Of a stretch of 64,000 nt of DNA, positions 51,526 to 61,450 are shown in pieces. Made by a program: the position numbers and the translations under genes. Under the pieces are notes generated by a model. That model worked only from the letters and a program-made list of their open reading frames with translations. It did no database searches and was not told where the DNA came from. The stretch's first letter is position 1; each line of letters begins with the position of its first letter. Source of the DNA: an uncultured Anaerolineaceae bacterium (lineage in GTDB: Bacteria; Chloroflexota; Anaerolineae; Anaerolineales; UBA4823); assembly GCA_964547225.1 (NCBI GenBank), contig CAZJMV010000212.1, positions 16,465-80,464 of the forward strand. Direction: 5' to 3'.

Positions 51526-52065
51526 CTACAAATTTCTAAGTTTATCTTCAATTCGTTTAAAATATTCTTCATCTTCGAATGAGGAATCCTTTTTTTTACT
51601 CTCAAGGTCAATTTGGTTGGATGAATACTTAGAAGTTTTCATTCCTTGAATTACCCGGATGAGAAAGAATACCCCTACAACAAACGCAATAGGAGGAACC
51701 AAATAAATCAACCAATTGAATCCCTCTGTTGGTGGTTCAGCTAAAACTCGGTACCCATACTGATCTACAAAGTAATCCATGATTTCCTGTTCAGACCAAT
51801 CTTCGGAGAGTTTTAAACGGATTAATTCCCGCCATTCATTACAGGCTTGCGTAGGACAAACATCTAAGGGAGTATTTTCGCAAACCGGGCAATACATTTT
51901 TCGGGCAATTGCATTGACTTCATCATCACTAGGGGTATTCGGTTCATGATCTTGGGCTAGTGCAATTGAATTAATACTTAGAAAAATAATAACCAAACTT
52001 ATGAGAATTATGATACGTTGCATGGATTGTGTACTCTTTATCATTTCACACACTAACACCTGCAT
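51526..52065 (-). CDS. ccmH: cytochrome c-type biogenesis protein CcmH (CcmL-like)
   Basis: Signal peptide, then MYCPVCENTPLDVCPTQAC (the LRCPxC-type motif), WSEQEIMDYFVDQYGYRVLAEPP, and a TM. The track ORF overlaps ccmF by 20 nt, and internal starts (M8 at 52044, or M15) are possible. Confidence 0.82.
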   Translation of the reverse strand: MQVLVCEMIKSTQSMQRIIILISLVIIFLSINSIALAQDHEPNTPSDDEVNAIARKMYCPVCENTPLDVCPTQACNEWRELIRLKLSEDWSEQEIMDYFVDQYGYRVLAEPPTEGFNWLIYLVPPIAFVVGVFFLIRVIQGMKTSKYSSNQIDLESKKKDSSFEDEEYFKRIEDKLRNL

Positions 52066-54100
52066 AGGTTTGTCTAGATTTCACTCTTTTGACTTTAGGC
52101 TCTTTATTAGGCCAAGCCGCGATAAATGTACCAATAATAAATACAAACGAACCAGTCCATAACCAGTTCACCAATGGATTACGATAGATCTTAAAGGTTG
52201 CTCCTTCCGTAGAAATGGGTAACCAATCTATGAGAACAATATATAAATCATCTTCCCATGTGCTTCTTAGACCTGGGATAGTCATTGGTTGCTGCGCTTC
52301 ATAGAAGTAATCACGTCGGGGAAATAACTCATCCACAAAATTGTTATTATGATAGACATCAACGACAGCCCTAGCAATGTTCCGTCCATCATTCGTATCA
52401 AAGATCGCTAAGGATTCATAAGTAACTTTGTAATCACCTAAAGTAATGCTTTCACCCTGTCGTATCGTTCCTTGGGTCTCCGTCTGAAAGATTTCAATTC
52501 CAATGATCCCCACAGCCATCAAAACGACACCCAAATGGATTATATAACCACCATAACGCCTGCGATTGCGACTTACCAAATGGATCAATGCGACAATAAA
52601 TGATTCACCAGAAGTTTTCCTTCGTGCTAAAGCACCTCTCCAGAACTCATAAATAGTCACAGAGAGAATAAATGTAGATAACCAAAATCCTAAGATAGCA
52701 GCAAAATTTCTGATTCCTAAAGCGAGTGGAGCTAAAACACCAATTACAGAAAAAACCAATGGTTTCCAAATTACCTTCCCTAAAGTTTTCGCTGTAGAAT
52801 ACCGCCATGCAGCAAGAGGCGCAATTCCCATTAGCAGCAGTAGCCCAGCAAATAACGGACCAGTAGCACGTTCGTAGAAAGGAGGACCAACAGTTACTTT
52901 CTGTCCTGTGAATATCTCGGAGATCAAGGGGAAAATTACTCCCCAAAAACAAACCACTAAAATACTTATAAACAGGAGATTATTGAGTAAAAATAACGCT
53001 TCTCTTGAAAACATCGTTGTCAAATTGGCTTCAGATTTTAGAGAATCCCATCGGTTCATTAACAATGCAAGTGAAGCTGAAAAAGTAACCCCAATAAACA
53101 CAAAGAATAAAGGACCGATCGCGCTTTGTGCAAAAGCGTGCACCGAGGATAACACACCGGAGCGAGTAAGAAAAGTTCCAAAGATCACTAAACTATAGGT
53201 AAGCACTATGAGAACCATATTCCAACGTTTCAACATACCACGTTTTTCTTGGATCATCACGGAGTGCAAGAAAGCAGTGCCAGTTAACCAGGGCATGAAT
53301 GCAGCTATTTCAACTGGATCCCAGCCCCAATAACCACCCCATCCAAGAACATCATAAGCCCAACGACCTCCTAAAACAAGACCCAAGGAAAGGAATAACC
53401 ATGCTACCAAGGTCCACTTGCGAGTGATTCTGATCCATCGATCATCTGTTCGGTTTGTTATCAATGCGGAAATTGCAAAGGCATAAGGTATCACAAAAGA
53501 AACAAAACCAAGATATTGCATGGGAGGATGAATGATCATTCCTGGATGTCTTAACAAAGGATTTAAACCGTAGCCATTGTTTGGACGGAATAATTGACCG
53601 CCTTCAGGTTGAAACATCGAGGTAAAAATCTCTCCATTTGGCAAACTCCAAAACCTTGTAAAGGGATTTTCAAAAAAAATGATTAAGATCAGGAAAAAAA
53701 TTAAGTTAAATAAAGAAACTGCAATAACCCAAGGTAAAAATTCGCGATCACGGTCCCACTTCCGTAAGGTAACAGCCGTCATAAAGGCTGCCAAGAGCCA
53801 AGTCCAAAACAATAACGACCCGGCTTGTCCACCCCAAAATGAGGTGATCCGTAAATAAAGTGGCATACTACTACTCGTAACCGAATGAACAAACTCATAC
53901 TCAAAACTACCGGTTACAAGCAAATTCAACAAACTTACCGCAGAAATAGTTAAAAGCGGGAAAGTTAATAACATCGATAAACGAGCGCTTTCTATCCAAG
54001 CAGCCAGCTTTTTCTTTACCCCATAAACGGCTGCAAATAATCCGTATATTGAAAGAAAAAATGTAACGACTAGTGAGCCATAACCTAGAGTTGCGATCAT
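52046..54100 (-). CDS. ccmF: cytochrome c heme lyase subunit CcmF
   Basis: 684 aa polytopic protein with WWD domain (GWGGYWGWDPVE) and conserved His residues. Confidence 0.93.
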   Translation of the reverse strand: MIATLGYGSLVVTFFLSIYGLFAAVYGVKKKLAAWIESARLSMLLTFPLLTISAVSLLNLLVTGSFEYEFVHSVTSSSMPLYLRITSFWGGQAGSLLFWTWLLAAFMTAVTLRKWDRDREFLPWVIAVSLFNLIFFLILIIFFENPFTRFWSLPNGEIFTSMFQPEGGQLFRPNNGYGLNPLLRHPGMIIHPPMQYLGFVSFVIPYAFAISALITNRTDDRWIRITRKWTLVAWLFLSLGLVLGGRWAYDVLGWGGYWGWDPVEIAAFMPWLTGTAFLHSVMIQEKRGMLKRWNMVLIVLTYSLVIFGTFLTRSGVLSSVHAFAQSAIGPLFFVFIGVTFSASLALLMNRWDSLKSEANLTTMFSREALFLLNNLLFISILVVCFWGVIFPLISEIFTGQKVTVGPPFYERATGPLFAGLLLLMGIAPLAAWRYSTAKTLGKVIWKPLVFSVIGVLAPLALGIRNFAAILGFWLSTFILSVTIYEFWRGALARRKTSGESFIVALIHLVSRNRRRYGGYIIHLGVVLMAVGIIGIEIFQTETQGTIRQGESITLGDYKVTYESLAIFDTNDGRNIARAVVDVYHNNNFVDELFPRRDYFYEAQQPMTIPGLRSTWEDDLYIVLIDWLPISTEGATFKIYRNPLVNWLWTGSFVFIIGTFIAAWPNKEPKVKRVKSRQTYAGVSV

Positions 54101-54110
54101 CTGCTTTGCT

Positions 54111-54629
54111 TTATCTTTCTACCTGTTCAGGCACAGCTTCATCGTATTTTGTGGGGCATTTCATGAGGACTTCATCAGCATAAAATACACCATCGTCCTT
54201 TAATCGACCAGTTACAATTGCCTGCGCTTCATCACGTAAAAGGTCTGGCTTAGGACCGTTGTAAACAATGTTCACCGTAGAGTTTTTAGGGCTACTTACC
54301 GCTTCATGTAACACTTTCGCAAGCCCACCGAGCTGTTCAATCTCATCATTATTCCCAGGAATATGAGCAATCGTGAATGACAATTGTAAATTGTGTTGAT
54401 CATATTCAATTGAATTTCCAATTACCGCGCCAGATATCCGCAAGTCTTTTTCTAGAACACTTTGGTCTTTTGAATTTAATTCATCAATGGTCAAAAAGTA
54501 TTGTGCGTTTGCTTGTGTTGAAGATACAATTAAATAGAATACCGCAGCAATAATCAATAACCCGCCAACGATAAATTTTATATTACTCGTAGAACCAGAG
54601 TTTTCTTCCTTTGAATAATCAACTGTCAT
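54111..54629 (-). CDS. ccmE: heme chaperone CcmE, Cys-variant (CxxxY instead of HxxxY)
   Basis: TM anchor plus OB-fold (..LRISGAVIGNSIEYD...AIVTGRLKDDGVFYADEVLMKCPTKYDEAV). The start is placed at ATG 54629, 8 nt after GGAGG; the track start is 54665. Confidence 0.85.
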   Translation of the reverse strand: MTVDYSKEENSGSTSNIKFIVGGLLIIAAVFYLIVSSTQANAQYFLTIDELNSKDQSVLEKDLRISGAVIGNSIEYDQHNLQLSFTIAHIPGNNDEIEQLGGLAKVLHEAVSSPKNSTVNIVYNGPKPDLLRDEAQAIVTGRLKDDGVFYADEVLMKCPTKYDEAVPEQVER

Positions 54630-54774
54630 TTTGGCAGCCTCCAAGCACGATAATACAACTGGCATTGATCATCCCAATCAAAGCCTTGTGTGAAATTCTG
54701 TCATAATTTGATTAATAGAACCTGAGATAGTATAAATAAAACCATGAGAATGTAACTGTAAAAGAATCATATAA

Positions 54775-58535: not shown

Positions 58536-59357
58536 CTAAAGTTTTTTATTATTATTGGGTTGTTCACGCCAAGATAAAAAACGAATTTCAAGCAAAACAA
58601 CAATGCCATAAAGTGACATTGCCATGATAATTAACGATAATACTGCAACAAACACTAAAGCAGTATCATATTGACCACGCGCACGATTGATCACAAATCC
58701 CAATCCATTATCCGCACCCACAAATTCACCAACTACAGCTCCGATTACCGAGAGCGTGGCGCCAATTCTCAGTCCACCAAAAAACACTGGCAACGAAGCC
58801 GGCAATTCCAGATAACGGAAAGTTTGCCAGGGTGAAGCCAGAAGCGAACGCATAAGATCCTTCAAATCTTCAGGGACCGATCGAATTCCTACAATCGTAT
58901 TTACTAGTACCGGAAAGAATACAATCAAAGCACATATTAATATTTTTGAGAAATAGCCGGGTCCAAACCAAATTACTAAGAGGGGTGCAATTGCAACAAT
59001 TGGAATTGATTGACTAGCTACTACATATGGAGACAGTATTCGTTCAATAACAGTCGATTTCGCTAAGATATACCCAAAAAATGAAGCAATGCTCACCCCA
59101 ATAAACAATCCTGCCAAAACCTCTCCTAAGGTAATTAAAGAATGATGAAATAGGCTGCCATCAAACAAGACCTGCCATAAACGTGCCCACACCAATCCAG
59201 GTGAAGGAAGAATGAACACCGGAAAATCACCAATAGAAACAACAACTTCCCAAATAAGAATCCCAATAACGAGTGAAACGGGTACAAGCACCGCTTGACG
59301 AGTAAGCAACCAATTCGATATACGTCCTTCAGATGAATATTTTCGAGATTTTGTCAT
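58536..59357 (-). CDS. ABC transporter permease (NitT/TauT family)
   Basis: 273 aa, six TM, with an EAA-type loop (..DLMRSLLASPWQTFRYLELPASLP..). Confidence 0.9.
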   Translation of the reverse strand: MTKSRKYSSEGRISNWLLTRQAVLVPVSLVIGILIWEVVVSIGDFPVFILPSPGLVWARLWQVLFDGSLFHHSLITLGEVLAGLFIGVSIASFFGYILAKSTVIERILSPYVVASQSIPIVAIAPLLVIWFGPGYFSKILICALIVFFPVLVNTIVGIRSVPEDLKDLMRSLLASPWQTFRYLELPASLPVFFGGLRIGATLSVIGAVVGEFVGADNGLGFVINRARGQYDTALVFVAVLSLIIMAMSLYGIVVLLEIRFLSWREQPNNNKKL

Positions 59358-59600
59358 AAAAACAAACCTGCCCAGAAATTGAAACCCCGGGGCAGGTATC
59401 TAATCTATATATTATGGATCACATATGTATTAACGAAATACAAATGGAACGACTCATTACCTTCTTCCATCCGGACTATACCGTCGGCTCCGGAATCACA
59501 CCGGATCTGCAATAATCAATTATCGCTCGCGGGCTTTACCGCCGGTCGGGAATCTGTATCATCAATTTTTCAAACTTGATCATACTTTTACCCTGCCCCG
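59358..59600 (-). promoter_or_regulatory. long structured 5' leader with mutually exclusive closing helix / intrinsic terminator (riboswitch-like, class unassigned)
   Basis: Minus strand: CGGGGCAGG (59600-59592) can pair with CCTGCCCCG (59396-59388). The same 3' strand, ACCTGCCC (59397-59390), can instead pair with GGGCAGGT (59373-59366), which is followed by TTGTTTTT and then the ATG. GC-rich conserved-looking islands and five local hairpins lie in between. Confidence 0.65.
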
Positions 59601-59630
59601 AAGGTTTATTTTCTTATCTTGAACGATAAA

Positions 59631-59659
59631 ATTATAACTCTCTAAACCTAGATGGTCAA
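59631..59659 (-). promoter_or_regulatory. near-consensus sigma70-type promoter driving the leader + ABC operon
   Basis: Minus strand: TTGACC (59659-59654), a 17-nt spacer, TATAAT (59636-59631). Confidence 0.65.
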
Positions 59660-59836
59660 TATGATTAAAATCATAATACAATAGCACTAATGTTTCGAAT
59701 AAAAAAAAATTACCTTTTTAGGCGTAATAATTGCAACATAATAGTCTATGATCATAATAAATCTGATCATGGATTATAAATCGATCAACCAAATTTATTC
59801 ATGGAACAAAGTTAAATATATAGGCGTCAAAGATAT

Positions 59837-61450
59837 ATGTCTCTTCAAAGACGAAAACCTAATGAAAGGAATGAGGCACCCGTTGTGCAAAGGACTTCCG
59901 AGTCAACGACAACGGTAATCCGTCTTTCACAAAGACGAGTCAAAAACAATCCTTCTTCCTTCGTAATTTGGATGATTATTTCAGTCTTAATACTTGGCAC
60001 TTTCGTTTTATTACTCGGCGGGATATTAAGTTATTATGCTTATTATCAAGGTTCATCTCGTGTAATTCCGGGTGTATATATTGGGCAAACTAATATTGGT
60101 GGGATGACTAAAGAGGATGCAATAGATTTTCTTAAAAAGCATTGGGATACTGAAACAAATATTGAAATAAGTGATGGATTTGAATCAAAAATATTCATGG
60201 CAAATGAACTTGGATATTCTATCGACGCCGAAGCATCCGTCAAAAAAGCACTCAATATTGCACATGGTCAATCTATGCTAGCAGAACTTGTCCAAATGTT
60301 TGTCAGTATCAAAGATGAACAACGAATTGCACCAGTGATCTATTTTGATAAGGAAATAGCTAATCAAAGATTGGAACAAATGACCGAAATTTTTTTCAGA
60401 GAACCTATCGATGCCAATATTAAAGTAGAAGAAGATCAGATCATCACCTTACCGAGTGAATTGGGATATGCCATCAACGTTCAAGAAACACTGAAAATGA
60501 TGGAGAATGAGTACCCAACCATACTGACGTCAGGAAAGATCCAGATTATTCCTCAACCAATCGCTCCTCAAATTACTGATGTAACCCCCGTGTTGGAAGA
60601 AGCCCAAGATTTCCTAACCACACCAATCCAATTGAAAATATATGATGCCATCACAAATGAATATTTCGATATCACTGTAGCTGAAGAAAAGATCATTAAT
60701 TGGCTGATCGTTGAAGCAGGAGAAAATGGTCCACAAATCACTTTTGATGAATACAAAGTGGCTGCTGATCTCACTGAAATGAGTGAAGAATTAGGTGGTT
60801 GGCGCTATCTTAGGGGAGAACTCTTTGCCAGTGAACTGGCTCAGTCTGTAAGGGAAAGAAAACCATTACCCATTATTATCGCTAGCCACACCTCAACAAA
60901 CTACACCACAAAACCAGGCGACACTTTATTAAAATTAGGCTGGAATAACGGTATGCCAATGTGGAAAATCCTAGAAGCCAATCCCGATCTCGATCCAGAT
61001 AATATATTAACAGGGATAAATCTGACTATCCCGTCTAAAGACGAAATGTTGCCACTCCCCGTTATTCCAAATAAAAGAATTATCATCAACATCAGCAATC
61101 AACGTCTTTTGACCTATCAAGATGGACAAAAAATCGGACAGCATGTTATTAGTACTGGTATCGACCGCTCTCCTACTCAACCTGGCATCTTTCAAGTGCA
61201 GTCTCACGAGAAAAACGCATATGCTTCTGTATGGGATCTTTATATGCCCAATTTCCTAGGCATATATGAATCGTGGCCAGGTTTCATGAACGGAATCCAT
61301 GGTTTACCAGTCCTTTCGAACGGGCAACGATTATGGGCAAATATACTTGGAAGTCCAGCTTCCTATGGTTGTATCATTGTTGATCTTGAAACTTCAGATT
61401 GGTTATATGAATGGGCTGAAGATGGTATTGTTGTAGAAATTCGAGAGTAA
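59837..61450 (+). CDS. L,D-transpeptidase (YkuD domain) with N-terminal TM, PG-binding-like region and LysM
   Basis: 537 aa. LysM segment (YTTKPGDTLLKLGWNNGMPMWKILEANPDL..GINLTIPS). YkuD catalytic motif (GIHGLP...GSPASYGCIIV). Confidence 0.88.
   Translation: MSLQRRKPNERNEAPVVQRTSESTTTVIRLSQRRVKNNPSSFVIWMIISVLILGTFVLLLGGILSYYAYYQGSSRVIPGVYIGQTNIGGMTKEDAIDFLKKHWDTETNIEISDGFESKIFMANELGYSIDAEASVKKALNIAHGQSMLAELVQMFVSIKDEQRIAPVIYFDKEIANQRLEQMTEIFFREPIDANIKVEEDQIITLPSELGYAINVQETLKMMENEYPTILTSGKIQIIPQPIAPQITDVTPVLEEAQDFLTTPIQLKIYDAITNEYFDITVAEEKIINWLIVEAGENGPQITFDEYKVAADLTEMSEELGGWRYLRGELFASELAQSVRERKPLPIIIASHTSTNYTTKPGDTLLKLGWNNGMPMWKILEANPDLDPDNILTGINLTIPSKDEMLPLPVIPNKRIIINISNQRLLTYQDGQKIGQHVISTGIDRSPTQPGIFQVQSHEKNAYASVWDLYMPNFLGIYESWPGFMNGIHGLPVLSNGQRLWANILGSPASYGCIIVDLETSDWLYEWAEDGIVVEIRE

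Follow-up and report, generated by a model that had tools for sequence, protein, structure and literature searches.

A predicted FMN riboswitch of the OFF type upstream of a ribXYZ-like transporter operon in an uncultured Anaerolineae bacterium

Flavin mononucleotide (FMN) riboswitches, or RFN elements, make up Rfam family RF00050, examples of which are the B. subtilis ribD and F. nucleatum impX (PDB 3F2Q) RNAs. The B. subtilis ribD element uses a terminator and an anti-terminator in an OFF mechanism, and TauC-family genes are commonly tied to FMN riboswitches (Atilho et al., PMC6298564). Among the Chloroflexi, RibXY, which is homologous to ThiXYZ, was found behind an FMN riboswitch in all genomes analysed (Sun et al., PMC3766115). 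RibXY of C. aurantiacus rescues an E. coli riboflavin auxotroph (Gutierrez-Preciado et al., 2015; PMC4418817), and work cited in the same paper attributes flavin binding to RibY and an ATPase gene, ribZ, to some Chloroflexi. Here we analyse a leader RNA and the operon that follows it in a 64,000-nucleotide (nt) stretch of DNA from an uncultured Anaerolineaceae bacterium (Anaerolineae, Chloroflexota; contig CAZJMV010000212.1), hereafter the window; features are on the minus strand unless stated otherwise. An earlier note, made from the sequence by eye, had described the leader as riboswitch-like, of unassignable class and with ON-type logic, in front of a ThiY/NMT1-type ATP-binding cassette (ABC) transporter. 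We consider it very probable that the leader is an FMN riboswitch that turns off a ribXYZ-type riboflavin ABC importer by terminating transcription. Direct support exists for membership in the family, for the mutual exclusion of two folds, and for the retention of element and design across orthologous loci.

The leader shares with these RF00050 RNAs the P1-P6 junction and the conserved junction sequences, an anti-terminator formed in the same way from the 5′ side of the aptamer, the predicted OFF logic and the association with riboflavin-supply genes. It differs from them in a 35-nt hairpin in L2, an A in place of a G in that loop, and a U-tract that runs into the start codon. RibXY of C. aurantiacus (Caur_0816-0817), from the same phylum, has the same types of permease (COG0600) and ThiY-like binding protein (COG0715/NMT1), co-transcribed behind an FMN riboswitch. 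The original was described without an ATPase, whereas the operon of the Anaerolineales clade always contains a ribZ-like ATPase gene and often adds a conserved fourth gene. The ThiXYZ/ThiY importer of hydroxymethylpyrimidine precursors belongs to the same transporter and binding-protein fold family and has the same operon layout. However, it is controlled by thiamine pyrophosphate (TPP), while the operon in the window is predicted to be controlled by FMN, gives no TPP match, and presumably has riboflavin as its substrate.

The variant FMN subtypes 1 and 2 (Atilho, Perkins and Breaker, 2019) share an FMN-like fold, and subtype 2 also uses a terminator. They carry G-to-A changes at phosphate and ribityl contacts, reject FMN, and lie upstream of COG3601 genes (subtype 1) or MATE/MFS genes (subtype 2), with subtype 2 acting as an ON switch. 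Assignment of the leader to either subtype was considered and rejected: all junction guanosines are kept in the window, and the downstream genes encode an ABC importer.

The FMN aptamer and its conservation

Positions 59000-60000 were searched with cmscan against all 4,227 Rfam families, using permissive filters and reporting matches to E ≤ 10. RF00050 aligned to 59609-59455 over model positions 1-138 of 138, with a score of 108.8 bits (E = 3.4e-26) against a gathering threshold of 66.2 bits, and an nhmmer profile search recovered the aptamer as well. Because a curated covariance model matches at E = 3e-26, the pattern of the leader lies far beyond chance. The same cmscan search gave zero matches at E ≤ 10 to TPP (RF00059), cobalamin and ykkC/guanidine-I (RF00442). 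Matches to the PutA thermometer, the greA leader and the EIAV frameshift element (E 4.5-8.8) were put down to chance, their scores being far under the gathering thresholds. A second scan, of the whole window at gathering thresholds, returned the same FMN element and one tRNA and nothing else, which makes this the sole riboswitch of the window, with no second FMN element. On the basis of the sequence match we assign the leader to the canonical FMN riboswitches, and it would be expected to bind FMN. The earlier view that the leader is a riboswitch stands, as does the exclusion of TPP. The statement that its class is not assignable does not hold, FMN having been absent from the candidates weighed by eye; and where a new or divergent class had been envisaged, the cmscan check proposed in the earlier note returned a significant match to a known one.

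The aptamer consists of six helices, P1-P6, around a central junction, with the C-G and G-C inter-junction pairs of J2/3 and J5/6 present; all helix pairs are Watson-Crick or G-U. The helices follow the Rfam structure line, with an additional check of every helix, and J1/2 and J6/1 were placed from the Rfam alignment. P1 (ACCUUC/GAAGGU, 59605-59600/59464-59459) is followed by J1/2 (GGGGCA, 59599-59594) and by P2 (GGG/CCC, 59593-59591/59550-59548; 59593-59548 as a whole), which encloses a 40-nt L2. Within L2 lies an inserted hairpin, GUAU-G-AUCAA...UUGAU-G-AUAC (59585-59556), where the sequence has a 35-nt insertion relative to the model. P3 (GCGG-UAAAGC-CCGC, 59542-59529), P4 (GCGAUAA-UUGA-UUAUUGC, 59526-59509), P5 (UCCGG-UGUGAUU-CCGGA, 59505-59489) and P6 (CGG-UAUAGU-CCG, 59483-59472) are hairpins, the last of them adjoining J6/1 (GAUGGAA, 59471-59465). 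Several elements that had been picked out by eye find their place here: the ATCAA/TTGAT hairpin lies inside the L2 insertion (59585-59556), GCGATAA-TTGA-TTATTGC is P4 (59526-59509), and CCGG-TGTGATT-CCGG lies within P5 (59505-59489). The two GC-rich islands that had been remarked on are also present; they are the conserved FMN core, J2/3-P3-J3/4 and J5/6-P6-J6/1.

All junction segments (J1/2 GGGGCA, J2/3 GACCGG, J3/4 GA, J4/5 AGA, J5/6 GCCGA and J6/1 GAUGG) agree with the upper-case Rfam consensus throughout. We take the J1/2 guanosines to be G10-G12 of the 3F2Q numbering, which contact the FMN phosphate; contact-residue numbers were placed on the motifs of the window partly by way of the 3F2Q sequence as we assume it to read. 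The matched junction nucleotides include the FMN contacts G10, G11, G32, G62, G84, A48, A85 and A99 from the list of Atilho et al. (PMC6298564). At J1/2, TTCGGGGCAGGGT is found in 65 of 75 homologs.

Just 3′ of the aptamer, TTCCAT (59449-59444) can pair with the ATGGAA of J6/1 (59470-59465). This complementarity, also recorded in the earlier note, appears as a pairing in the centroid fold of the leader, and it could aid the unfolding of the 3′ side of the aptamer in the ligand-free state.

The comparative set comprised 80 orthologous Anaerolineales loci, with relatives of the binding protein drawn from GTDB contigs at one genome per species; its closest relatives all come from Anaerolineales or Chloroflexota metagenome-assembled genomes (53-65% identity). 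RF00050 is located 5′ of the permease in 16/16 orthologous loci scanned with Rfam (91-107 bits). An nhmmer profile located the FMN element in 74 of the 80 loci, and in all six misses the sequence upstream is shorter than about 1,260 nt. Comparisons of aptamers and leaders were made on 75 sequences, the window included, and covariation was assessed on 73. The outer pair of P1 covaries from AU to UA or GC (10 double changes), and P3 shows a CG-to-UA covariation in 20 sequences. Compensatory changes amount to 13-23 per pair in P4 and to 2-14 in P5, and P2 is invariant. RNAalifold on the MAFFT alignment shifted P6 out of register and gave a spurious J1/2-J2/3 pair; P6 was therefore judged by eye, which revealed a change from CGG/CCG to CCG/CGG in five loci and to CAG/CUG in one. 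The test for covariation in homologous leaders that had been recommended in the earlier note thus supports P1, P3, P4 and P5.

Terminator, anti-terminator and the predicted switch

Leader elements were read directly from the minus strand of 59200-59800. A sigma-70-like promoter, with a -35 TTGACC (59659-59654), a 17-nt spacer and a -10 TATAAT (59636-59631), agrees with the consensus at 11 of 12 positions and scores highest in the region, in agreement with the earlier reading of 59659-59631. Judged from the position of this promoter, transcription probably starts near 59624, about 17-19 nt 5′ of P1. The 271-nt leader folds better than 200/200 dinucleotide shuffles (z = -3.39). The remaining elements of the earlier description are likewise where they had been placed: CGGGGCAGG at 59600-59592, TGTATT/AATACA at 59442-59426, ACCTGCCCCG at 59397-59388, and GGGCAGGT at 59373-59366, which leads through TTGTTTTT (59365-59358) to the ATG at 59357.

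The terminator stem-loop (59397-59366) pairs ACCUGCCC (59397-59390) with GGGCAGGU (59373-59366), its inner pairs being weak, and is followed by the U-tract UUGUUUUU (59365-59358), which abuts the start codon. The 51-nt terminator region folds with -17.7 kcal/mol (z = -2.95), and a scan of 59200-59900 found this hairpin to be the only terminator-like site, which bears out the intrinsic terminator that had been proposed beside the start codon. The 5′ strand of the anti-terminator has CGGGGCAGG (59600-59592) as its core and becomes CCUUCGGGGCAGG (59603-59592) when extended by G-U pairs. Its 3′ strand, CCUGCCCCG(GGG) (59396-59385, of which CCUGCCCCG occupies 59396-59388), doubles as the 5′ arm of the terminator.

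We compared the unconstrained minimum-free-energy fold of the leader with a constrained fold in which the Rfam aptamer pairs were enforced. The unconstrained fold (-81.6 kcal/mol) contains 9/9 anti-terminator pairs, 0/8 terminator pairs and 0/6 P1 pairs. Under the aptamer constraint (-71.0 kcal/mol), 8/8 terminator pairs arise unprompted and 0/9 anti-terminator pairs remain. The competition between the distal segment and the 5′ arm of the terminator, which the earlier note had pointed out, is thus borne out by two mutually exclusive folds. The CGGGGCAGG/CCTGCCCCG helix takes C59600, the last base of P1, all of J1/2 (59599-59594) and G59593-59592 of P2, and because it uses bases of P1, J1/2 and P2 it cannot coexist with the folded aptamer. 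The long-range helix is an anti-terminator, and FMN binding would therefore free the terminator. As far as can be read from the sequence, the switch is of the OFF type and is predicted to operate by transcription termination.

The same design recurs in the orthologous leaders. A strict pattern, consisting of a hairpin with a GCCCCG-like 5′ arm complementary to J1/2 and a T-run, is present in 60 of the 75 leaders, against 1.3% of 5,000 background windows. By eye, the remaining 15, the window among them, have the same design with variant arms. Automated terminator picking with a loose arm definition and controls found a hairpin in 75/75 leaders and ranked the anti-terminator top in 27/75.

We propose that transcription begins at the TTGACC/TATAAT promoter, about 17-19 nt before P1. 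At high FMN, the ligand would sit in the six-helix junction and lock P1, J1/2 and P2. This would leave CCUGCCCCG (59396-59388) free to pair with GGGCAGGU (59373-59366) as the terminator, and the polymerase would let the transcript go in the U-tract (59365-59358), short of the ATG. In any transcript that is read through, GGCAGG would still be buried in the hairpin. At low FMN, CCUUCGGGGCAGG (59603-59592) would capture the CCUGCCCCG segment as an anti-terminator of 9-12 base pairs (bp) and block the terminator, so that permease, binding protein and ATPase would be made and riboflavin imported. OFF logic of this kind is sensible because the genes would import the precursor of the ligand.

Several observations weigh against this mechanism. 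Nearest-neighbour energies favour the anti-terminator state over aptamer plus terminator by about 10.6 kcal/mol, which means that the OFF state would have to draw on energy from the ligand and from tertiary contacts, as well as on co-transcriptional kinetics, a dependence that is usual for the FMN riboswitch class. In addition, the U-tract runs into the ATG without a canonical Shine-Dalgarno sequence, which makes the start codon and the mode of translation initiation uncertain; the ATG at 59357 was also chosen in independent metagenome gene calls. Finally, L2 departs from the model in two ways. Its second base is A (UA for UG), the sole departure from a highly conserved base and unique among the 75 sequences, and it carries the 35-nt insertion. 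L2 makes the L2-L6 tertiary contact, on which both changes may have an effect. Neither L2 change touches a listed ligand contact. A hairpin is inserted at the same L2 site in 54 of the 75 leaders, with variable sequence and a length of 15-89 nt but always arranged as UGA-hairpin-AAUU, and the canonical 7-nt L2 loop is found in the other 21.

Control exerted by a canonical FMN aptamer chiefly through translation, or at both levels, is a less likely arrangement, to which we assign a small though appreciable probability. The only Shine-Dalgarno-like purines, GGCAGG (59372-59367), lie inside the 3′ arm of the terminator, 9 nt before the AUG that the U-tract adjoins; the earlier observation that the terminator hides them is correct and allows for a secondary effect on translation. 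Furthermore, ribU of B. subtilis is regulated translationally by an FMN riboswitch (PMC6298564), and intrinsic termination might be inefficient in the Anaerolineae. However, the hairpin and its 8-nt U-rich tract have the form of a textbook intrinsic terminator. A few of the orthologous leaders have a U-tract adjoining the start, and most place a spacer and a separate, GGAGG-like Shine-Dalgarno sequence after the terminator (judged by eye, with the first in-frame ATG/GTG/TTG over-extending the open reading frames (ORFs)). About a dozen (loci L011, L012, L015, L028, L036, L038, L042, L052, L057, L066, L069 and L073) have tandem terminator-like hairpins between aptamer and permease, within about 200 nt 3′ of the aptamer and with CCCCG complementary to J1/2 in both 5′ arms. 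Because of the spacer with its separate Shine-Dalgarno sequence and the tandem terminators, termination appears to be the conserved mode.

The transporter operon and its substrate

The start codon next to the U-tract opens the gene for a ribX-like ABC permease of 273 amino acids (59357-58536), which is TauC/SsuC-like with a BPD_transp_1 domain; independent gene calls give the same 273-residue product. The gene for a ribY-like substrate-binding protein of 333 amino acids (58526-57525), a member of the NMT1/THI5/ThiY fold family (PF09084, 5.6e-50), lies 9 nt away on the same strand, and JGI metagenome contigs contain the exact protein with identical gene calls. A ribZ-like ABC ATPase of 257 amino acids (57494-56721) and an uncharacterised fourth ORF of 315 amino acids (56724-55777) follow. 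The order permease, binding protein, ATPase is found in all 80 loci, but the permease is absent from one truncated contig. According to the coordinates, an ATPase homolog stands directly 3′ of the binding-protein gene in 80/80 loci.

RibXY importers combine a COG0600-type permease and a COG0715/NMT1-type binding protein from co-transcribed genes, and an upstream FMN riboswitch has served to call RibXY orthologs (Gutierrez-Preciado et al., 2015); the window has this arrangement, with the two genes close together on one strand. Conversely, the element occupies the position expected of an FMN riboswitch, upstream of a riboflavin transport-type operon. The published definition of RibY orthologs further sets a minimum of 38% identity and 80% coverage relative to the C. 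aurantiacus J-10-fl prototype, and this prototype is not among the 120 matches listed for the binding protein. By analogy, the operon would encode a RibXY(Z)-type importer with riboflavin as its probable substrate. The description as a ThiY/NMT1-type ABC transporter is correct as to family, but the operon is better labelled ribXYZ, for riboflavin import.

It is very unlikely that the transporter instead imports the pyrimidine precursor of thiamine, as a true ThiXYZ system, or a sulfonate- or nitrate-type substrate, with the FMN element being incidental. The best solved relatives of the binding protein, 4NMY and ThiY (3IX1, E = 2.7e-21), and its relation to THI5 would be in keeping with such a substrate, as would the NCBIfam results, which offer just below-cutoff SsuA/TauC-type matches, and the generic name 'NitT/TauT family' given to most database homologs. 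However, a homolog with 64% identity is named 'putative riboflavin transport system substrate-binding protein', and it is an FMN riboswitch, not a TPP riboswitch, that precedes all 74 orthologs with sufficient upstream sequence. The RibXY family, under the same regulation, transports riboflavin, and RibY binds flavins (PMC4418817).

The fourth ORF may belong to the operon because its start and the ATPase stop have 4 nt in common, and it is called as a gene of 314 amino acids in metagenome assemblies. Judged by eye, the protein appears to combine a signal peptide with about 220 amino acids of extracytoplasmic domain, one transmembrane segment and, at the C-terminus, a zinc ribbon, the last being its sole Pfam match; a comparison with NCBIfam gives nothing. 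A homolog (39-51% identity) lies directly 3′ of the ATPase in 48 of the 80 Anaerolineales loci, and the fourth gene could provide riboflavin uptake with a new accessory protein. The L2 hairpin, for its part, might tune folding or the response to the ligand, because it is sited in the loop of the L2-L6 contact. We suggest, tentatively and as something rather doubtful, that both of these lineage-specific additions may have a function and lack an earlier description.

The surrounding genes are unrelated to riboflavin, and the window contains no rib biosynthesis genes. Downstream of the operon lie CcmE and CcmF of cytochrome c maturation (52046-54665). Upstream, a divergent L,D-transpeptidase gene (YkuD with LysM and PG_binding_4 domains) occupies 59837-61450 on the plus strand.

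Direction of the switch and meaning for the family

The earlier note had proposed the opposite direction of control, in which the ligand stabilises CGGGGCAGG/CCUGCCCCG as a domain-closing stem, blocks the terminator and thereby activates the transporter. The 9-bp long-range helix that inspired this ON-type logic does exist and is part of the minimum-free-energy fold, and ON switches are known among the rare FMN-variant RNAs of subtype 2 (PMC6298564). However, the helix is not P1: it is built from J1/2 together with parts of P1 and P2, keeps 0/9 pairs when the aptamer is enforced, and thus excludes the ligand-bound state, while the true P1 lies elsewhere (59605-59600/59464-59459). In the variant ON subtypes the guanosines that contact the phosphate are changed to A, and these RNAs precede MATE/MFS efflux pumps, whereas the window keeps these guanosines and encodes an importer. 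An end product that induces its own importer would make no regulatory sense, and the leaders of the orthologs again contain a segment complementary to J1/2, which is how the classic OFF switch is built. We therefore regard an ON switch as extremely improbable.

The probability that the leader belongs to a divergent or novel class (cobalamin-like, ykkC/guanidine-like or new) sensing a non-flavin ligand is close to nil: the resemblances to a cobalamin core and to the ykkC/guanidine-I 3′ hairpin that had been seen by eye are spurious, neither family matching at E ≤ 10 where FMN matches at E = 3e-26, and although NMT1-type transporter homologs in other phyla are under ykkC, TPP or T-box control (PMC4418817), the conserved FMN junction nucleotides are all in place and every ortholog with sufficient upstream sequence (74 loci) has the FMN element.

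Neither the FMN element nor its regulon is new in kind or for the Chloroflexi, and because any standard Rfam scan would label the element, the locus is of little interest beyond annotation. The proper labels are an FMN riboswitch (OFF, transcription termination) for the leader and ribXYZ, rather than ThiY/NitT/TauT-type, for the operon. The locus also carries a caution for reading leaders of this kind, in that a long-range helix competing with a terminator does not by itself mean an ON switch, and the true P1 should be located first. For the Anaerolineales, the 74 loci that have the element, with none lacking it where upstream sequence is available, extend the universal FMN control of ribXY beyond a handful of Chloroflexi genomes, and the ATPase gene is a constant member of the operon in this clade.

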